Of a stretch of DNA of 64,000 nt, positions 6,961 to 18,289 are shown one piece after another; position 1 is the stretch's first letter, and every line of letters starts with the position of its first letter. The DNA comes from Escherichia coli (GTDB lineage: Bacteria; Pseudomonadota; Gammaproteobacteria; Enterobacterales; Enterobacteriaceae): the NCBI RefSeq assembly GCF_024223415.1, contig NZ_CP100500.1; one strand, given 5' to 3'. The notes beneath the pieces were generated by a model, which saw only the letters and a program-made list of their open reading frames with translations, did not search any database and was not told where the DNA came from. Made by a program: the position numbers and the translations under genes.

Positions 6961-7242
6961 ATGACAGAAGCCGAACTACTGGGATTAATCCGCCGCGTTA
7001 CCGGAATCAGCCAGCAGCATGACGAACAGGCCACGCAGCCGGACAGCGTGACCGCCGAAAATTATGTGCGTGTTGTTGCGGAGGTGATGCGCCGTGACGG
7101 TATTGAGCTTAACGGCGTGGATATGCGCGACATACGGATCCGCGTTCTGGAAATGCTGGCATACCGTCGCCGCGTGCAGACGTACAGGGAAAAAGCAAAA
7201 ATAACGTACCACTGGAAGAAGCCGGAACGACTGCGTACGTAA
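6961..7242 (+). CDS. hypothetical protein (93 aa)
   Basis: ORF in track; weak RBS; last ORF of element before repeat-rich end. Confidence 0.3.
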   Translation: MTEAELLGLIRRVTGISQQHDEQATQPDSVTAENYVRVVAEVMRRDGIELNGVDMRDIRIRVLEMLAYRRRVQTYREKAKITYHWKKPERLRT

Positions 7243-7366
7243 TACGTACGGACATCGAGATAACGCAAAATTGCGCTGGCTACATCCCTCACATCTGAGG
7301 ACTGATAACAAGCTGCCTGAAAGACAGTCACAAACTACGAAATTTTCGCAGTTTAATTAATGGTCA

Positions 7367-7670
7367 GCTTAATCGCTAACCCGCTGATATTTTCGGAAAC
7401 ATCAATTTGAGGAAGTCGGCGCGGTAACTCGCTGAACTTAAAGCAAAGCGCAAAATTGCGCTGATTACTGGTTGGAATTGTTCCAGAGTGCAAATTTGCA
7501 CTCTGGCCTAACCCGTTGATTATTTCGAAAACCTGCAATGCAGGAAATCGGGGAAGTAAGCCTAAGCTATTGATTGTTTCGAAAACCACCATTGGGGGAT
7601 GTCGGGAAAGTAAGACTAACCCATTGATTCTTCCACAATCCTCAATGTGAGGAGGCCGGACATCGTGACA
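7367..7670. repeat. four imperfect direct repeats of about 54 bp (CTAACCCNTTGAT...GTAAG), three in tandem
   Basis: Units at about 7373-7427, 7507-7560, 7562-7615, 7616-7670 share CTAACCC(G/A)(C/T)TGAT ... TCGG..AAGTAAG and each contains a short internal inverted repeat. Confidence 0.6.
7483..7506. promoter_or_regulatory. 24-bp perfect palindrome CCAGAGTGCAAATTTGCACTCTGG
   Basis: Perfect dyad symmetry seen directly; nearby related inverted repeats GCGCAA-AA-TTGCGC at 7448-7461 and CGCAA-AA-TTGCG at 7264-7275. Confidence 0.5.
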
Positions 7671-7954
7671 GAGCGTGACAACCAGGTAACTAATCTCGCT
7701 GGTGGGCGTGATGTCGATATGGTGATCCCCATAACGGGTTATCCGTGATCATCCACCAGCTTCATGGCAGATAGCCGGAAAATGATAACGGTTAAGCAAA
7801 ACTGCCAGCAAATTTCCCTTTTGTTTGTTATTGTTCGTCGTTGTTCGTAGAGCTTCAACAAAATGTGTGGTCAGTTGTGTGGTCAGTTTTGAGGTTTTTA
7901 ATTCTTATGTGCTGAAAAACTTATTAATTATCAACTGATAACAAAAATTAGTAA

Positions 7955-8048
7955 GAAATACCCGTATCACCTGATCTGGATAATGCCAGCGTAGGGAAGT
8001 CACGGACCACCAGGTCATTGCTTCTTCACGTTATGGCAGGAGCAAACT
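7955..8048 (+). promoter_or_regulatory. 3' portion of thiM TPP riboswitch (thi-box) and expression platform; 5' half of aptamer absent
   Basis: GAAATACCCGTATCACCTGATCTGGATAATGCCAGCGTAGGGAAGT matches the well-studied E. coli thiM aptamer 3' half from memory; expected upstream GGGGTGCCCTTCTGCGTGAAGGCTGA is replaced by AT-rich unrelated sequence. Confidence 0.6.
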
Positions 8049-8837
8049 ATGCAAGTCGACCTGCTGGGTTCAGCGCAATCTGCGCACGCGTTACACCTTT
8101 TTCACCAACATTCCCCTCTTGTGCACTGCATGACCAATGATGTGGTGCAAACCTTTACCGCCAATACCTTGCTGGCGCTCGGTGCATCGCCAGCGATGGT
8201 TATCGAAACCGAAGAGGCCAGTCAGTTTGCGGCTATCGCCAGTGCCTTGTTGATTAACGTTGGCACACTGACGCAGCCACGCGCTCAGGCGATGCGTGCT
8301 GCCGTTGAGCAAGCAAAAAGCTCTCAAACACCCTGGACGCTTGATCCAGTAGCGGTGGGTGCGCTCGATTATCGCCGCCATTTTTGTCATGAACTTTTAT
8401 CTTTTAAACCGGCAGCGATACGTGGTAATGCTTCGGAAATCATGGCATTAGCTGGCATTGCTAATGGCGGACGGGGAGTGGATACCACTGACGCCGCAGC
8501 TAACGCGATACCCGCTGCACAAACACTGGCACGGGAAACTGGCGCAATCGTCGTGGTCACTGGCGAGATGGATTATGTTACCGATGGACATCGTATCATT
8601 GGTATTCACGGTGGTGATCCGTTAATGACCAAAGTGGTAGGAACTGGCTGTGCATTATCGGCGGTTGTCGCTGCCTGCTGTGCGTTACCAGGCGATACGC
8701 TGGAAAATGTCGCATCTGCCTGTCACTGGATGAAACAAGCCGGAGAACGCGCAGTCGCCAGAAGCGAGGGGCCAGGCAGTTTTGTTCCACATTTCCTTGA
8801 TGCGCTCTGGCAATTGACGCAGGAGGTGCAGGCATGA
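8049..8837 (+). CDS. thiM: hydroxyethylthiazole kinase
   Basis: 262 aa ORF, recognised ThiM sequence; overlaps thiD start. Confidence 0.95.
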
Positions 8838-9634
8838 AACGAATTAACGCTCTGACGATTGCCGGTACTGATCCGAGTGGTGGTGCGGGGATTCAGGCCG
8901 ATCTTAAAACCTTCTCGGCACTTGGCGCTTATGGTTGCTCAGTTATTACTGCACTGGTGGCGCAAAATACCCGTGGCGTACAGTCGGTGTATCGCATTGA
9001 GCCTGATTTTGTCGCCGCCCAGCTCGATTCGGTGTTCAGCGATGTGCGAATCGATACCACTAAAATCGGTATGCTGGCGGAAACCGATATTGTTGAAGCG
9101 GTGGCAGAACGGTTGCAACGTTATCAGATCCAAAACGTGGTACTCGACACCGTTATGCTGGCAAAAAGCGGCGACCCGCTGCTTTCACCTTCGGCGGTTG
9201 CTACGCTGCGCAGTCGATTATTGCCACAGGTTTCATTAATAACGCCAAACTTGCCCGAAGCTGCCGCCTTGCTCGACGCGCCACACGCGCGCACCGAACA
9301 GGAAATGCTGGAACAAGGGCGATCGCTGTTGGCGATGGGCTGTGGCGCAGTGCTAATGAAAGGTGGTCATCTGGATGATGAGCAAAGCCCGGACTGGCTG
9401 TTTACCCGCGAGGGTGAACAACGGTTTACCGCACCGCGCATTATGACCAAAAACACCCACGGCACTGGTTGTACACTCTCTGCGGCGTTGGCTGCACTAC
9501 GCCCGCGCCATACAAACTGGGCTGACACCGTACAGGAGGCAAAAAGCTGGCTTTCATCGGCGTTAGCCCAGGCCGACACGCTGGAAGTTGGTCACGGTAT
9601 TGGTCCGGTTCACCACTTCCACGCCTGGTGGTGA
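8834..9634 (+). CDS. thiD: hydroxymethylpyrimidine / phosphomethylpyrimidine kinase
   Basis: 266 aa ORF, recognised ThiD. Confidence 0.95.
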
Positions 9635-9689
9635 GCACCGTACTATAGCTGCTTTGGTTATTGTCAGCCTTTGGCACTGACATTCAGGG

Positions 9690-10517
9690 ATGAAACCAAT
9701 GCAGCTAAGAATTACCAGTCGAAAAAAACTCACCTCTCTATTATGCGCTCTTGGGCTAATTTCCATCGTTGCAATTTATCCGCGTCAGACGGTGAATTTT
9801 TTCTATTCGACAGCAGTTCAGATTACAGACTACATCCACTTCTACGGTTATCGCCCGGTTAAATCTTTCGCTATTCGCATTCCTGCCAGTTACACCATTC
9901 ACGGAATAGATGTTTCGCGCTGGCAGGAGCGGATCGACTGGCAGCGGGTGGCAAAAATGCGCGACAACGGTATCCGCTTACAGTTTGCTTTTATTAAGGC
10001 GACGGAAGGCGAAAAGCTGGTGGACCCCTATTTTTCGCGTAACTGGCAACTAAGCCGCGAAAATGGCCTGCTGCGTGGGGCGTATCATTATTTCTCCCCG
10101 TCGGTATCCGCTTCAGTTCAGGCGAGATTATTTCTGCAAACGGTGGATTTCTCACAAGGCGATTTCCCTGCCGTGCTGGACGTAGAAGAACGGGGAAAAT
10201 TATCGGCAAAAGAATTACGCAAGCGGGTAAGTCAGTGGCTAAAAATGGTCGAAAAAAGTACGGGGAAAAAGCCGATTATTTACTCAGGAGCCGTTTTTTA
10301 TCACACCAATCTGGCGGGCTATTTCAATGAATATCCGTGGTGGGTGGCTCACTACTATCAACGTCGTCCGGACAATGACGGAATGGCCTGGCGCTTCTGG
10401 CAGCATTCCGACCGTGGACAGGTAGATGGCATCAATGGTCCGGTGGATTTTAATGTATTTAATGGCACGGTGGAGGAGTTGCAGGCATTCGTTGATGGGA
10501 TTAAAGAAACGCCTTAA
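9690..10517 (+). CDS. yegX: glycoside hydrolase family 25 (lysozyme-like) protein
   Basis: 275 aa; N-terminal hydrophobic segment; GH25-like region (IHGIDVSRWQ...); conserved position next to thiD. Confidence 0.8.
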   Translation: MKPMQLRITSRKKLTSLLCALGLISIVAIYPRQTVNFFYSTAVQITDYIHFYGYRPVKSFAIRIPASYTIHGIDVSRWQERIDWQRVAKMRDNGIRLQFAFIKATEGEKLVDPYFSRNWQLSRENGLLRGAYHYFSPSVSASVQARLFLQTVDFSQGDFPAVLDVEERGKLSAKELRKRVSQWLKMVEKSTGKKPIIYSGAVFYHTNLAGYFNEYPWWVAHYYQRRPDNDGMAWRFWQHSDRGQVDGINGPVDFNVFNGTVEELQAFVDGIKETP

Positions 10518-10568
10518 ATAAGAAGCAGTGATATACTCCCACCAGACTCCCCGGCAGGAAAAAGACAA

Positions 10569-11315
10569 ATGGAACAAGCGCATACCCAGCTGATTGCCCA
10601 ACTGAACGAGCGTATTTTAGCGGCGGATAACACGCCGCTTTATATTAAGTTTGCCGAAACGGTAAAAAATGCCGTGCGCAGCGGGGTGCTGGAGCATGGC
10701 AATATTTTGCCCGGTGAGCGTGATTTAAGTCAGTTAACCGGCGTTTCGCGCATTACGGTGCGCAAGGCGATGCAGGCGCTGGAAGAAGAGGGTGTGGTGA
10801 CGCGTTCGCGCGGTTACGGCACGCAGATCAACAACATCTTCGAATACTCGTTGAAAGAAGCGCGAGGTTTTTCTCAGCAGGTGGTATTGCGCGGGAAAAA
10901 GCCCGATACGCTATGGGTTAACAAGCGTGTCGTGAAATGTCCCGAAGAAGTCGCGCAGCAGCTGGCGGTCGAAGCAGGAAGTGATGTCTTTTTGCTTAAG
11001 CGTATTCGCTATGTCGATGAAGAAGCGGTATCGATTGAGGAATCGTGGGTTCCGGCGCATTTAATTCATGATGTTGATGCCATCGGGATTTCACTTTATG
11101 ACTATTTCCGCAGCCAGCACATTTACCCACAACGTACGCGTTCCCGCGTTAGCGCCCGGATGCCAGATGCCGAGTTTCAGTCACATATTCAGTTAGATAG
11201 CAAAATACCGGTGCTGGTGATCAAGCAAGTGGCGCTTGACCAACAGCAACGGCCTATTGAATACAGCATTAGCCACTGTCGCAGCGATCTATACGTTTTT
11301 GTGTGCGAGGAGTAG
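10569..11315 (+). CDS. yegW: GntR-family transcriptional regulator
   Basis: 248 aa; N-terminal GntR-type HTH, UTRA-like C-terminus. Confidence 0.85.
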   Translation: MEQAHTQLIAQLNERILAADNTPLYIKFAETVKNAVRSGVLEHGNILPGERDLSQLTGVSRITVRKAMQALEEEGVVTRSRGYGTQINNIFEYSLKEARGFSQQVVLRGKKPDTLWVNKRVVKCPEEVAQQLAVEAGSDVFLLKRIRYVDEEAVSIEESWVPAHLIHDVDAIGISLYDYFRSQHIYPQRTRSRVSARMPDAEFQSHIQLDSKIPVLVIKQVALDQQQRPIEYSISHCRSDLYVFVCEE

Positions 11316-12254
11316 TTCCTCGCGCGTTGGCGCACAATCACCGCCCCGATGCCCGACAACCCACGACGCCACTGCATTGCCCAGTAATACGGCATCCGCC
11401 AGTGGCAGACCAGAGGCCAGCCCGGCAAGTACGCCACCGGCATGACTGTCGCCCGCCCCAATGGTGTCGACAACTTGCGTTGGAAATGCCGGAATGCAGC
11501 CAGAAGCGTCGTTGCTGAAATACCATGCGCCTTCTTTATCGAGACGAACGATCAACGGCGCGGCAAATTTCTCCTGCCATTGTTTGCCAAGTGTTGTTAT
11601 CTCTGCGGATAAAGCAAAACGTTCGGCGGCAATCTCAGCCTCTTGACGATTGAGCGACACTAAAGGTCGACAGGCCATGATCCGCGCCAGTAATGCATCC
11701 GGGATATCGCCAATACGTGGGCCAAAATCGATAAACGGCGTCACGTCTTGCAGCTTTTCCAGCCATTCCACTAATAATTCGCCGCAGGGCGAGGCCAGTT
11801 GATAACCGGAAAAATAGAGCAGGCTGCCAGGCGCAACGGTTAATCGCGCCAGACACTGGCGATTCCACTGATTTTCCACACCGCTGAATGACATAAAAGT
11901 GCGTTCGCCATCCGGCTCAACCAGCGCCAGACACCAGCCGTTATCACCTTCGGCGTTATCGATCAGGCTGATTAAGCCCTCTTTTGCCATCCGGTTGCGA
12001 ATAATCTCCGCCCACACGCCCTGACCGAGCGGCAAGGCATTACCCGCTTCGATGCCGAGGCGCTTTAACGCCACGGCAATATTCAGTGCGCAGCCGCCAA
12101 CGTTAACGCTCTGCTGTTTCAGTTCGATATCGCACCCACGCCAGGGGAGGGCATAAGCGTCGGCGATCACGTCAATGACCGCCGCGCCGACGACCATCAC
12201 CGACTGACGCGTGGTTAATTCAGGCAGCAGCGTGTGTAATCGAGCGCCGCTCAT
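11289..12254 (-). CDS. yegV: PfkB-family sugar/nucleoside kinase
   Basis: 321 aa; PfkB motifs (GGCALN, DTIGAGD); conserved synteny. Confidence 0.85.
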   Translation of the reverse strand: MSGARLHTLLPELTTRQSVMVVGAAVIDVIADAYALPWRGCDIELKQQSVNVGGCALNIAVALKRLGIEAGNALPLGQGVWAEIIRNRMAKEGLISLIDNAEGDNGWCLALVEPDGERTFMSFSGVENQWNRQCLARLTVAPGSLLYFSGYQLASPCGELLVEWLEKLQDVTPFIDFGPRIGDIPDALLARIMACRPLVSLNRQEAEIAAERFALSAEITTLGKQWQEKFAAPLIVRLDKEGAWYFSNDASGCIPAFPTQVVDTIGAGDSHAGGVLAGLASGLPLADAVLLGNAVASWVVGHRGGDCAPTREELLLAHKNV

Positions 12255-13255
12255 ACCGCCTCCCGTTGTTGACGATATTTCGCCAGCGCTGTGGCATAGC
12301 GGTTGAAATCAAGCTGATTTACCGCATCCAGCTCCGCCTTTAACGCAGGATCGATAGCGTTAATGCCATGCAACGCGCCGCAGATTGCCGTCGCCATAGC
12401 ACCGATGGTGTCTGTATCGCCGCCAAGGTTAGCGCACAGTACGGCGCAACGGTTCGGGTCGGTTTGTGCCAGTTCAACCAGCGCAATGGCGCACGGAACG
12501 GACTCAATAGTGCTGGTACCTGCGCCAACGACCTGGTAAAGCTGTTCGCTGGCGGATTCGGTGCCGTCGGCATTGCGCACAATTTTCAGCGCAATCTCCA
12601 ACCGCGCTGCCAGTGAGGCGCTGAACGTAGTGATGCGTTTTTGCTGTGCATGTCGCGCAATTGAAGGCAGGGAATCAACAATCGCTGACCAGCTTTCTCC
12701 GTCAATGGCACGAGAAATCGCCCATGCGATGACTACCGCGCCTGCAACCGCCAGATCGGATTTATGGGTCGGGCTGGACGCCAGCGCTACATCATCAATA
12801 AAGGAATCAACATCACGCGCCGGAAGCAAACAACCTAATGGCGAGACGCGCATCGCTGCGCCGTTGGTCACGCCGTTGTTTTCCAGTTCAGCAACGGGTT
12901 TACCGTCGCGAATGGCGTTAAGCGCAATCTTCGAGGTCGGACCTAGTACGTTTTTGTTAAAGGCGTCGAAACGCAGCGCCCAGTCGAGAATATTACGCCC
13001 AATCAGATCCGGATCGATCTTGCCTTCACGTTCCAGTAACGCATCCGCCAGACACAGCGCCATCGAGGTATCGTCGGTGAATTCGGCGCGGTTAAAATAA
13101 CAGGCCGCGTTATTCTCCTTTGGTCCAGGAAGAAAACGGTCAATCCAGCCAAAGTGTGCTTTAACGCGGCTGCGTGGCCAAAGCTCGGAGGGCATCCCCA
13201 TCGCATCCCCTAACGCCTGCCCATAAAGAGCACCGAGAATACGTTCTGTTTTCAT
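12251..13255 (-). CDS. yegU: ADP-ribosylglycohydrolase family protein
   Basis: 334 aa; ADP-ribosylglycohydrolase-like sequence; translationally coupled to yegT and yegV. Confidence 0.85.
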   Translation of the reverse strand: MKTERILGALYGQALGDAMGMPSELWPRSRVKAHFGWIDRFLPGPKENNAACYFNRAEFTDDTSMALCLADALLEREGKIDPDLIGRNILDWALRFDAFNKNVLGPTSKIALNAIRDGKPVAELENNGVTNGAAMRVSPLGCLLPARDVDSFIDDVALASSPTHKSDLAVAGAVVIAWAISRAIDGESWSAIVDSLPSIARHAQQKRITTFSASLAARLEIALKIVRNADGTESASEQLYQVVGAGTSTIESVPCAIALVELAQTDPNRCAVLCANLGGDTDTIGAMATAICGALHGINAIDPALKAELDAVNQLDFNRYATALAKYRQQREAV

Positions 13256-14529
13256 TTAACTTCCCCTTGTGTCAACGCAATATCGCGATCATCGACCTTG
13301 ATAGCCGTAATTTCGTTGTCGGATTCGCGGAAAAAAATCATGAACAGCACGGCGATAATGGCAATCATCACCGCGCCGAAAGTCCACATCCCGGACCAGT
13401 TGAAAGTCAGTCCGTTTACCGGTTCCTGATAAGCGAACATCTTTTCCATCATCACACCGCCAAGACGATAGCCGAGCAAACTGCCGAAGCCCTGGCAGCA
13501 GAGCGTGATCAGCCCCTGCGCAGCGGTACGCATATGCACGGGGGCTTTTTTATCGACATAGATGTAAGCGGTAACGTAGTAAAAATCGTAACTTACGCCG
13601 TGAAGCAAAATACCGAGGAACAGTAACGCGTAGGTGAAATATTCATCCGCACTACCGTAAATAAAGAAGCCATAGCGGATCGCAGCGGTGACCAGACCAA
13701 GCAATAATACCTTTTTGATACCAAAGCGTTTAGTGAAAAACGGCAATGCCAGCATAAAGAAGATTTCAGAGAACTGGCCGAGCGTCATCCAGCCGGTGGC
13801 GTTTTTCATGCCAACTTCGGTCAGATAACCGTTGGCAAAGATGTAATAGAACGCTAGTGGCATCGCAAACAGGAATGAACAGAAGAAAAAGACGAGGAAG
13901 TTTTTATCGCGCAGCAGGATCAGCGCATCCAGGCCGAGCATGACTTTAATATCCATTTTGCCGGTGCTTTTTGGTGGCGTGTCGGGCAGGAAAAACGCAA
14001 ACACACCGAGCAGAGCAGAACTTCCGGCGGTAATCAGCAGCGGGATGTTAGTCGGTGAGATATCGGCATACCCCAGTATTTGCGGCAAGAAACCACATGC
14101 CAGACCGGAGGCAATCCAGCCGATAGTGCCCATCACACGAATGCGCGGGAAATCACGCTCAACATCCGGCACGTTGGCAAAAGCGATGCTGTTAGTCAGC
14201 GCAATGGTCGGCATATAGGTTAGCGAGTAGGCCAGCAGTAACGGGAAGAACCCGGCAAAAGTGGTCTGTTGCGCAGCGAAATACATCAGCAGCGCGCCTG
14301 CGAACATCAATACCGCCAGCACTTTCTGCGCCGAGAAAAAGCGGTCAGTGATGGAGCCAACCAGAATTGGCGACAGGATCGCCGCAATGGCGGTACAGGC
14401 ATACGACCAGCCAATTTCTCCGGCACTAAAACCGCTTTTACTTAACCACAACCACAATGGCACAAACCACGCGCCCCAGATAAACCATTCAACAAACATC
14501 ATGAACGACAGCTTTGCTGTTGTTTTCAT
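13252..14529 (-). CDS. yegT: nucleoside:H+ symporter family MFS transporter
   Basis: 425 aa polytopic membrane protein. Confidence 0.85.
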   Translation of the reverse strand: MKTTAKLSFMMFVEWFIWGAWFVPLWLWLSKSGFSAGEIGWSYACTAIAAILSPILVGSITDRFFSAQKVLAVLMFAGALLMYFAAQQTTFAGFFPLLLAYSLTYMPTIALTNSIAFANVPDVERDFPRIRVMGTIGWIASGLACGFLPQILGYADISPTNIPLLITAGSSALLGVFAFFLPDTPPKSTGKMDIKVMLGLDALILLRDKNFLVFFFCSFLFAMPLAFYYIFANGYLTEVGMKNATGWMTLGQFSEIFFMLALPFFTKRFGIKKVLLLGLVTAAIRYGFFIYGSADEYFTYALLFLGILLHGVSYDFYYVTAYIYVDKKAPVHMRTAAQGLITLCCQGFGSLLGYRLGGVMMEKMFAYQEPVNGLTFNWSGMWTFGAVMIAIIAVLFMIFFRESDNEITAIKVDDRDIALTQGEVK

Positions 14530-14785
14530 CTTTTAATTCCTTCATGACAGGTAATGTAAGGTACGCGATGACAATACCACTTAATAATACCTTTTAAATA
14601 CCTTTGCGGTGAAAACTTGACCGCGCTAACATTTTTTCTGATGAATCGAGCCAACAGAAAACGCTGAAAAAACATCCAAAAGATGGAAAAACTCGCCCGT
14701 AACGACCAGGATTATGATTGCCCGCAAAAGGCGGGCCAGGAAAATCCATAGCCGATATCCAATCGGAATTTACGGGAGCATAGTA

Positions 14786-15838
14786 ATGACAGATATTGCG
14801 CAGTTGCTTGGCAAAGACGCCGACAACCTTTTACAGCACCGTTGTATGACTATTCCTTCTGACCAGCTTTATCTCCCCGGACATGACTACGTAGACCGCG
14901 TGATGATTGACAATAATCGCCCGCCTGCGGTGTTACGTAATATGCAGACGTTGTACAACACCGGGCGTCTGGCTGGCACAGGATATCTTTCTATTCTGCC
15001 GGTTGACCAGGGGGTTGAGCACTCTGCCGGAGCTTCATTTGCTGCTAACCCGCTCTACTTTGACCCGAAAAACATTGTTGAACTGGCGATCGAAGCGGGC
15101 TGTAACTGTGTGGCGTCAACTTACGGCGTGCTGGCGTCGGTATCGCGGCGTTATGCGCATCGCATTCCATTCCTCGTCAAACTTAATCACAACGAGACGC
15201 TAAGTTACCCAAACACCTACGATCAAACGCTGTATGCCAGCGTGGAGCAGGCGTTCAACATGGGCGCGGTGGCGGTTGGTGCGACTATCTATTTTGGCTC
15301 GGAAGAGTCACGTCGCCAGATTGAAGAAATTTCTGCGGCTTTTGAACGTGCGCACGAGCTGGGCATGGTGACAGTGCTGTGGGCCTATTTGCGTAACTCC
15401 GCCTTTAAGAAAGATGGCGTTGATTACCATGTCTCCGCCGACCTGACTGGTCAGGCGAACCATCTGGCGGCAACCATAGGTGCAGATATCGTCAAACAAA
15501 AAATGGCGGAAAATAACGGCGGCTATAAAGCGATTAATTACGGTTATACCGACGATCGCGTGTACAGCAAGTTAACCAGCGAAAACCCGATTGATCTGGT
15601 GCGTTATCAGTTAGCTAACTGCTATATGGGCCGGGCTGGGTTGATAAACTCCGGCGGTGCTGCGGGCGGTGAAACTGACCTCAGTGATGCAGTGCGTACT
15701 GCGGTTATCAACAAACGCGCTGGCGGAATGGGGCTGATTCTTGGACGTAAAGCGTTCAAGAAATCGATGGCTGACGGCGTGAAACTGATTAACGCCGTGC
15801 AGGACGTTTATCTCGATAGCAAAATTACTATCGCCTGA
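14786..15838 (+). CDS. fbaB: class I fructose-bisphosphate aldolase
   Basis: Start at internal ATG 14786 ([16 protein letters not shown]) giving 350 aa as in FbaB. Confidence 0.9.
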
Positions 15839-15841
15839 TAC

Positions 15842-15990
15842 GCCTTATACGGACAACACCACCCCGTAGGACGGATAAGGCGTTTACGCTGCATCCGGCA
15901 ACCTATGCCTGATGCGACGCTGAAGCGTCTTATCATGCCTACATAGCACTGCCACGTATGTTTACACCGCATCCGGCATAAAAACACGCG
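15842..15990. repeat. REP/BIME cluster
   Basis: Multiple GCCGGATGCGGCG / CGCATCCGGC-type palindromic units. Confidence 0.7.
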
Positions 15991-16000
15991 CACTTTGCTA

Positions 16001-16029
16001 CGGCTTCCCCCGGGAGGCCGTTTTTTTTG
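16001..16029 (+). terminator. rho-independent terminator
   Basis: CGGCTTCCCCCGGGAGGCCG hairpin followed by TTTTTTTT. Confidence 0.6.
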
Positions 16030-16089
16030 CCTGTCATTCTGGATTAATTTTCACATTGTCGTTTTTGTGATCGTTATCTCGACATTTAA

Positions 16090-18289
<2,200 letters not shown>

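Follow-up and report, generated by a model that had tools for sequence, protein, structure and literature searches.

The yegX-yegW-yegVUT locus of Escherichia coli lies at positions 9,690 to 14,529 of a window of 64,000 nucleotides, which is the whole stretch of chromosome analysed here (assembly GCF_024223415.1, contig NZ_CP100500.1). It is an already known, already annotated and partly characterised locus, and bases 9000–15500 of the window are present in 5424 of 5426 complete E. coli genomes with 95–100% identity. We lean towards the view that it holds two unrelated things, namely a conserved four-gene riboside module, in which the transporter YegT, the kinase YegV and the hydrolase YegU would import and process a riboside under the repressor YegW (GgaR), and a later insertion of yegX, the gene for a lysozyme-like protein. 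As for the reaction, it is a serious possibility, put forward tentatively, that yegTUV is the E. coli copy of a widespread pathway occurring in Proteobacteria, in loci of Gram-positive-type context and in other metagenomic lineages. In this pathway a phosphoribohydrolase of the ADP-ribosylglycohydrolase (ARH) fold would act on a non-canonical riboside 5'-phosphate made by a PfkB kinase, for example that of a modified nucleoside or of a vitamin- or cofactor-related riboside; ADP-glucose would be only a ligand with which GgaR cross-reacts, and the extra glycogen of the ggaR mutant a side effect. If true, this would give the ARH fold a new catalytic role beyond ADP-ribose, would supply a function for thousands of genes of the ARH and PfkB families that are named by family only, and would clarify whether the role of GgaR in glycogen is direct.

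YegU-like and YegV-like proteins are coupled across genomes. A search of 1.84 billion cluster representatives returned 234 relatives of YegU at E ≤ 1e-30, and eight of the ten long relatives that were scanned (449–758 amino acids (aa)) proved to be fusions of an ARH and a PfkB domain, with each of the two domain orders seen four times. That such fusions arose independently in either order strongly indicates that the two activities are consecutive steps. Moreover, a PfkB gene is adjacent or fused in ten of the 11 neighbourhoods of YegU relatives (31–72% identity), and in the eleventh the contig ends at the gene. The partner transporter differs between these loci, being a permease of the nucleoside:H+ symporter (NHS), NCS1, ECF or ABC type, and a GntR/UTRA regulator recurs among them; a metagenomic NHS locus has the same convergent GntR/UTRA layout as E. 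coli. Occasional extras are a PNP_UDP_1 phosphorylase, an isochorismatase-family protein, and DeoC with a phosphopentomutase-like enzyme. The swapped importers, the recurring regulator and these extras suggest that a small molecule containing ribose is taken up and then broken down or salvaged, and the neighbourhood pattern, so far as gene context can tell, gives no sign of a role in protein de-ADP-ribosylation or glycogen metabolism.

In two of the loci, genes for PfkB-ARH fusions lie directly downstream of ECF genes, that is, EcfT/CbiQ and ATPases (L087 1424–5719; L098 3759–8923). ECF transporters usually import vitamins or micronutrients, and the linkage is thus a hint of a scarce substrate rather than a bulk carbon source. 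Enlarged YegU relatives were also seen, one of 692 aa with two ARH stretches and one of 715 aa with a single ARH domain and about 400 residues without Pfam match (among P0161; L097 1916–4063; L092 1815–3209), and in some loci the kinase-ARH pair is accompanied by another ARH paralogue of greater length.

The residues of the two enzymes agree with such a division of labour. YegU matches PF03747 (ADP_ribosyl_GH) over residues 8–302 at 2e-66, with 225 bits against a cut-off of 26.2, and its best solved relative is MJ1187 (1.5e-29), followed by ARH3 (2e-16). Its E24, T60-D61-D62 and D280-T281-D282-T283 align with the GDCVGSFYE, YTDDT and GGDTDT motifs of ARH3, which we take to be the catalytic Glu and the di-metal ligands, and judging from this alignment YegU retains the catalytic Glu and all metal-ligand motifs of the family. 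ARH3 F143 and Y149, presumably the adenine-stacking residues, are unmatched by aromatics in YegU, the pairwise alignment there being gapped and of low confidence. To our knowledge, every characterised ARH enzyme cleaves the C1'' bond of a ribose that bears a 5''-phosphate; a riboside 5'-phosphate would be the minimal substrate of that kind.

YegV can be placed in the PfkB/ribokinase superfamily (Pfam PfkB, 1.7e-56, 192 bits) by its GG dipeptide, its GAGD anion hole and its catalytic Asp. It aligns over the full length with E. coli RbsK and retains D28, G53-G54, N58 and GAGD266-269, and all 14 ARH-linked PfkB kinases compared likewise retain the D28, GG pair, N58 and GAGD positions. The positions of RbsK N14, K43 and E143 are occupied by V26, C55 and A154 in YegV, and none of the 14 linked kinases has Asn or Lys at the N14 and K43 positions. 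In the ribokinase structure 1RKD, N14, K43 and E143 contact the anomeric end of free ribose and the D28-equivalent Asp binds the 2',3'-OH groups. The systematic loss of the anomeric contacts would suit a substrate that has an aglycone attached at C1.

YegT belongs, by its profile matches, to the NHS family (PF03825 Nuc_H_symport, 3.5e-184; TIGR00889, 654.9 bits against a cut-off of 446.1), and it is the only one of the five proteins to reach a curated cut-off in NCBIfam (June 2026), that of a nucleoside-permease subfamily; YegU, YegV and YegW lie far below every equivalog cut-off there and YegX matches no model. The crystal structure of YegT has been solved (Xiao et al. 2025, PMC11979927), and in the same work isothermal titration calorimetry showed no significant binding of uridine, adenosine, cytidine or guanosine by YegT, and four uridine-contact residues of NupG were found not to be conserved in YegT. 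The lack of binding of the four nucleosides and the loss of the NupG contacts favour a non-canonical substrate. Taken together with the motifs of YegU and the residues of YegV, the non-binding by YegT favours an order of import, 5'-phosphorylation and then hydrolysis.

The pathway that we propose would run as follows. GgaR, present at a low and constant level, would bind an array of GGTAT boxes over the -10 element and block transcription of yegT-yegU-yegV until an effector frees it, whereupon one translationally coupled mRNA would be made. YegT would import an uncharged, non-canonical riboside, YegV would phosphorylate its 5'-OH, and YegU, as an ARH-fold di-metal enzyme, would cleave the ribose C1' bond of the riboside 5'-phosphate, so that ribose-5-phosphate would enter the pentose-phosphate pathway and a free aglycone would be left. 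Derepressed yegTUV transcription into the overlapping 3' end of yegW may reinforce the induction. The gene yegX would have no functional tie to this module, being a later Escherichia insertion between thiD and yegW.

The domain layout of YegW (PF00392 GntR, 3e-16, 59 bits, residues 29–87; PF07702 UTRA, 2e-36, 125 bits, residues 108–242) places it in the HutC subfamily of the GntR family, and the claim made from the sequence that a GntR/UTRA regulator controls yegTUV agrees with published repression (PMC10819704). In that study, Saito et al. (2024) renamed the protein GgaR, counted about 20–30 molecules of it per cell and found a single genomic target by chromatin immunoprecipitation on arrays (ChIP-chip). 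In gel shifts GgaR bound the fbaB/yegT spacer strongly, most strongly on a 190-bp probe, and there was a weak site inside yegT (probe 5, nucleotides 571–869 of the open reading frame (ORF)). Deletion of ggaR derepressed yegTUV about 30-fold and left fbaB unaffected; the mutant contained two to three times more glycogen and grew more poorly in minimal glucose medium. ADP-glucose at 10–100 µM freed GgaR from the DNA in gel shifts, and glucose or ADP did not (PMC10819704).

Within the 190-bp probe that GgaR binds most strongly lies an array of GGTAT boxes, which is a candidate for the GgaR operator (Table 1). It forms a block whose columns are at least 90% conserved in an alignment of 78 distinct upstream regions from enterobacteria, and its flanks diverge; the regions aligned are from Escherichia, Citrobacter, Salmonella, Enterobacter, Klebsiella/Raoultella, Kluyvera, Buttiauxella, Cedecea, Pectobacterium and others. 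The predicted -10 of the yegTUV promoter sits inside the second box, and in the 78 regions this -10 is conserved and the -35 is not. With the -10 inside the box, occupancy by GgaR would exclude RNA polymerase. The heptamer AGGTATT occurs nine times in the window against 4.3 expected, with two copies in the yegT promoter and a third at 13706–13712 inside yegT, where a pair of boxes falls within the published weak-binding probe 5. At synonymous positions this pair is kept only in part, and it has been lost from Enterobacter and allied genera; it is thus treated as a candidate site that is auxiliary and lineage-variable. Further upstream there is another conserved element, TGTTA-N6-TCAA, the half-sites of which look CRP-like, as judged by eye only.

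Synteny was studied by tblastn of the window proteins against 80 related loci and the source-strain locus L001 (81 loci). The order fbaB, yegT-yegU-yegV, yegW, thiD-thiM is constant throughout the Enterobacteriaceae, and Pectobacterium has yegTUV-yegW without the fbaB and thiD-thiM neighbours. The gene yegX stands between thiD and yegW solely in Escherichia loci among the 80, and it is absent from this locus in the more than 70 other enterobacterial species examined, where yegW usually abuts thiD with a gap of 40–55 bp. The conserved synteny without yegX suggests that the module is old and vertically kept and that yegX was inserted later. The word 'island', which the sequence-only reading had used for the whole locus, therefore does not suit yegTUV-yegW, and only yegX is lineage-specific.

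The junction between yegW and thiD is a variable spot. Escherichia sp. MOD1-EC7003 has an insert of about 7.4 kb between yegW and yegX, encoding SUKH-1, SWIM zinc-finger and two DUF6493/DUF7824/DUF7825 proteins, and E. albertii has SWIM and DUF6493/DUF7824 genes beyond yegW at the same spot. In Pseudocitrobacter the junction contains genes for a LysR regulator, an adenine deaminase and a purine permease, and in Superficieibacter about 870 extra bp. The coordinates recorded for variable-junction loci are L002 6650–14150, L006 2870–6889 and L021 12700–17150.

YegX can be assigned to the GH25 family by its domain (Pfam GH25, 9.5e-55, 186 bits, full profile 1–180) and by its conserved acidic residues, an N-terminal Asp and D-x-E; its PDB relatives are GH25 lysozymes (1e-33 to 1e-27), and D71, D161, E163 and D250 are invariant across ten homologues. 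The hydrophobic N-terminus noticed in the earlier reading is indeed present, as residues 11–27 form the only strongly hydrophobic segment of the protein, with R4, R8, K9 and K10 ahead of it. This segment is a predicted N-in signal anchor, in which no lipobox or signal-peptidase motif was seen by eye, and we infer that YegX may be an inner-membrane-anchored periplasmic muramidase. The nearest species-named homologues outside Escherichia/Shigella are from Sphingobacteriales (Solitalea, Pedobacter, Pseudopedobacter, Anseongella), with 45–53% identity over nearly the full length, and they have the same basic N-terminus, transmembrane helix and linker of about 35–40 residues ahead of the GH25 domain. 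A core lysozyme-like gene of E. coli would thus be a lineage-specific acquisition with its nearest named relatives in Bacteroidota, a point that bears on any inventory of the cell-wall hydrolases of E. coli. The GC content of yegX (0.48–0.50, against 0.51–0.59 in its neighbours) is slightly low, which is not decisive for horizontal transfer.

A homologue with 67% identity to YegX was found in a Salmonella-like contig (L100 6001–6807) between rcnB and thiM, on the other side of thiMD. The same contig encodes YegU and YegW with 83% and 92% identity, and its yegT, likely a pseudogene, is broken into two ORFs (116 and 340 aa; L100 11434–12748). Many YegX clusters are truncated to 160–240 aa in Shigella flexneri, S. 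sonnei and some E. coli, and this recurrence suggests repeated pseudogenisation of yegX. As to expression, RNA polymerase is reported to bind in vitro within the thiD/yegX spacer; yegX and yegW are on the same strand with a gap of 51 bp and no terminator-like site between them, so they may be transcribed together.

Several points weigh against the reading given above for yegTUV and yegX. The order of kinase and then hydrolase is one that we infer, and the loss of adenine-stacking residues in YegU rests on a low-confidence stretch of alignment. The consensus scans for promoters and terminators were not above shuffled expectation and were used for position only, so that the assignment of the yegTUV promoter rests on its position; the activity, topology and expression of YegX are predictions. 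In addition, the best matches of YegV are ribokinases, in the PDB as well as in NCBIfam, and free ribose is a possible substrate. This is in favour of a scheme with the hydrolase first, where YegU would cleave the riboside to ribose and aglycone and YegV would be a second ribokinase acting on the released ribose, and it is also known that Bacteroidetes ribose-utilisation loci pair ribokinases with ADP-ribosylglycohydrolases and nucleoside hydrolases (bioRxiv 10.1101/574913). However, YegV stays far under the ribokinase equivalog cut-offs (82.6 against 299.65 bits for TIGR02152; 61.2 against 341 bits for NF008353), and the absence of Asn or Lys at the two RbsK positions in all the ARH-linked kinases does not fit a ribokinase. 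E. coli already has RbsK, and the known ARH substrates all bear the 5''-phosphate. We regard the hydrolase-first scheme as unlikely, though it deserves to be kept in mind.

The published data themselves suggest another function. The sole effector shown to free GgaR is ADP-glucose, a compound other than a riboside 5'-phosphate, and the sole published phenotype is glycogen accumulation (PMC10819704). From these results a direct function has been drawn by Saito et al., in which GgaR senses ADP-glucose and YegTUV import, make or spare ADP-glucose and so raise glycogen. The yegV deletion is, moreover, among the mutants listed with reduced glycogen, and yegTUV mRNA rises about 3-fold at high glucose (PMC10819704). 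The gel-shift result is real evidence, which the riboside model leaves unexplained. Nevertheless, the proposal is without an enzymatic link, and its authors say that the gene functions await study; the effector panel consisted of three compounds only, and the 3-fold induction by glucose contrasts with the 30-fold derepression in the mutant (PMC10819704). Because glycogen synthesis is inverse to growth rate (PMC10819704), the markedly poorer growth of the ggaR mutant in minimal glucose medium could itself raise glycogen, and the phenotype may be indirect. The module also co-occurs with NCS1, ECF and ABC importers and with nucleoside and pentose genes, not with glg genes. To carry a dianionic nucleotide sugar would be unusual for an H+ symporter. 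A direct function in ADP-glucose or glycogen metabolism thus seems improbable to us. A still lower probability must be given to YegU being a true de-ADP-ribosylase of proteins, nucleic acids or O-acetyl-ADP-ribose, like DraG, ARH1/3 or Tri1, with kinase and transporter merely co-located. Its fold and its catalytic and metal motifs, which appear intact, and its weak NCBIfam matches to DraG and Tri1 would allow this, but the matches do not reach the equivalog cut-offs (79 against 337 bits for DraG, TIGR02662; 68.5 against 490 bits for Tri1, NF041672), the locus has no ADP-ribosyltransferase partner, none of the five proteins matches a PADLOC defence model at E ≤ 0.001, and the recurrent PfkB fusion and importer linkage point to small-molecule metabolism. 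Finally, yegX might belong with the module, for example by freeing a cell-wall-derived substrate of YegTUV, or might be a domesticated phage endolysin of the signal-anchor-release (SAR) type; we give scarcely any credence to either. Its place directly upstream of yegW on the same strand speaks for the first, and matches to PHROG endolysin families and an N-terminal segment rich in small residues, like a SAR domain, for the second. But a part in the module is ruled out by the synteny in the 80 related loci, as no species examined outside Escherichia has yegX at the yegTUVW locus and the Salmonella-like contig has it on the other side of thiMD, and GH25 products are muropeptides, not ribosides. 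Phage matches of YegX do not exceed 41% identity and no phage genes flank yegX, whose neighbours are thiD and yegW, so that a prophage remnant was rejected, as was membership of the SAR-type endolysins, there being no lysis-cassette context and no close phage relatives.

Compared with known systems, the proposed riboside pathway has its closest parallel in pseudouridine catabolism by psuT-psuK-psuG (yeiM-yeiC-yeiN), where a nucleoside transporter, a PfkB kinase and a glycosidase reportedly give ribose-5-phosphate and base, as is said to have been described by Preumont et al. in 2008. The logic is the same as in the order proposed for yegTUV, but the glycosidases are unrelated, PsuG having an indigoidine-synthase-A-like fold and YegU the ARH fold, and the match of YegV to the pseudouridine kinase model is no better than E = 4e-4, with 19.5 bits where the cut-off is 540. 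A three-part architecture like that of yegTUV is also found in Salmonella stm4065-4066-4067, which, as cited in PMC3161100, encode a permease, a kinase that phosphorylates aminoimidazole riboside (AIRs) and a putative ADP-ribosylglycohydrolase. Orthology of YegV with the kinase STM4066 was rejected, since structure 1TYY matches YegV at E = 4e-5 and 26 bits only, and Salmonella has a separate YegU orthologue (83–88% identity) apart from stm4065-4067. We take stm4068 to be the GntR-type repressor of these genes, and their permease to be of another family than YegT. With ARH3, DraG and Tri1, YegU shares the fold, the catalytic Glu and the di-metal ligand motifs; it differs from them in the scores given above, in having a kinase and importer rather than a transferase as partners, and in its adenine-stacking residues, which are unmatched in a weak alignment. 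YegX has the full domain and the conserved acidic residues of GH25 muramidases such as Cellosyl (1JFX), Cpl-1-type enzymes, Clostridium autolysins and phage endolysins, but unlike them it has the N-terminal anchor and linker and no cell-wall-binding repeats or phage context, and its gene belongs to the core genome of a Gram-negative species.

The locus is the same as the published yegTUV-ggaR locus of E. coli K-12, with regulator, transcript and binding region as published and nothing different in sequence terms (PMC10819704; PMC11979927); only the directness of the glycogen link is questioned here. Added here are the kinase-hydrolase fusion and linkage evidence, the swapping of transporters and the comparative context, as well as the candidate conserved GGTAT-box operator over the predicted -10. 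The operon can be called a remaining blind spot of E. coli K-12 metabolism: it belongs to the core genome, is tightly repressed and has a regulator and a transporter on which work has been published, yet neither of its enzymes has a known reaction. Full-text literature searches to mid-2026 gave no biochemical assignment for YegU, YegV or YegX, and for an ADP-ribosylglycohydrolase together with PfkB, ribokinase or riboside they gave nothing beyond the papers on GgaR, YegT and Bacteroides ribose utilisation. YegV is still catalogued as an uncharacterised sugar kinase in a 2025 paper, and the RefSeq names of YegU, YegV and YegX remain at family level. The opinion of the sequence-only reading that substrate and role are poorly defined thus holds, and no published definitive substrate assignment was found in the literature searched; YegW, however, is by now characterised as the repressor GgaR, and the crystal structure of YegT has been solved. 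The comparative evidence narrows the 'nucleoside-like' label to a specific and testable pathway hypothesis.

The genes and other features are collected in Table 1, and the RefSeq order across the stretch is thiM, thiD, yegX, yegW, yegV, yegU, yegT, fbaB. The five genes, their coordinates and their families are as read from the sequence before, with ORFs, RefSeq names and Pfam in agreement, except that yegX starts at 9699 in RefSeq and not at 9690; the spacing of a Shine-Dalgarno-like AGGGA about 9 nt upstream suits 9699 better. The translational coupling of yegTUV was likewise correctly recognised, as the stop of yegT and the start of yegU overlap in ATGA (13252–13255), as do the stop of yegU and the start of yegV (12251–12254), both junctions being preceded by purine-rich stretches, and the three genes form one published transcript of 3.3 kb (PMC10819704).

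Table 1. Features of the yegX-yegT interval and of the yegT upstream region, in positions of the window.
Feature	Position	Strand	Description
yegX	9699..10517 (longest ORF from 9690)	+	membrane-anchored GH25 muramidase-like protein (anchor predicted), 272 aa
YegX hydrophobic segment, residues 11-27	9729..9779	+	LTSLLCALGLISIVAIY; Kyte-Doolittle 17-residue maximum (mean) 2.28 at residue 11
yegW = ggaR	10569..11315	+	GntR/HutC-type repressor, winged helix and UTRA effector domain
yegW/yegV 3'-end overlap, 27 bp	11289..11315	convergent	from ORF coordinates and RefSeq
yegV	11289..12254	-	PfkB/ribokinase-superfamily kinase, 321 aa
yegU	12251..13255	-	ADP-ribosylglycohydrolase-fold hydrolase, 334 aa
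yegT	13252..14529	-	NHS-family transporter of the major facilitator superfamily, 425 aa
Candidate auxiliary GgaR site in yegT	13703..13725 (ORF nt ~805-827)	-	TTTGGTATC-AAAAAGGTATTATT, two boxes 11 bp apart
Candidate GgaR operator	14560..14605	-	AAAGGTATTT AAAAGGTATTATT AAGTGGTATT GTCATCGC GTACC; three direct GGTAT boxes 11 and 13 bp apart, then inverted GTACC
Predicted sigma-70 promoter of yegTUV	14584..14613	-	-35 TTCACC (14613-14608), 18-bp spacer, -10 TATTAT (14589-14584)
Conserved upstream element TGTTA-N6-TCAA	14617..14631	-	columns TG..A....G.TCA at least 90% conserved in the 78 upstream regions

The arrangement of regulator and operon is not divergent, as had been stated before and as is ruled out by the coordinates, since yegW (+) and yegV (-) converge and overlap at their 3' ends; the gene divergent from yegT is fbaB, with a spacer of 256 bp. 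The overlap is retained in most of the 80 related loci, and the consensus scan showed no terminator-like site between the two genes. The pair is listed by ExcludonFinder as an RNA-seq-defined excludon, that is, an overlapping convergent pair (PMC12288877), and the coding overlap of 27 bp, the lack of a visible terminator and the published overlapping RNA-seq coverage agree with this definition. With no terminator in the overlap, full induction of yegTUV could lower yegW by transcriptional interference, which is offered as a hypothesis only.

Some minor observations concern the neighbouring genes. The longest ORF of fbaB starts at 14714, whereas RefSeq places the start 72 bp further downstream, at 14786; the extension (14714–14785) would enter the yegT-fbaB regulatory spacer. 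An Rfam scan of 7000–16500 found no RNA family inside the yegX-yegT interval. The thiamine pyrophosphate (TPP) riboswitch of thiM (7880–8014, +), which is annotated in RefSeq, scored 36.4 bits against an Rfam 15 gathering score of 54.3, so that a scan at the default gathering threshold misses it. Just downstream of fbaB, at 15869–15939 (+), there is a match to Rfam naRNA4 (nucleoid-associated noncoding RNA 4 / CssrE) with 64.5 bits against a gathering score of 59.5.

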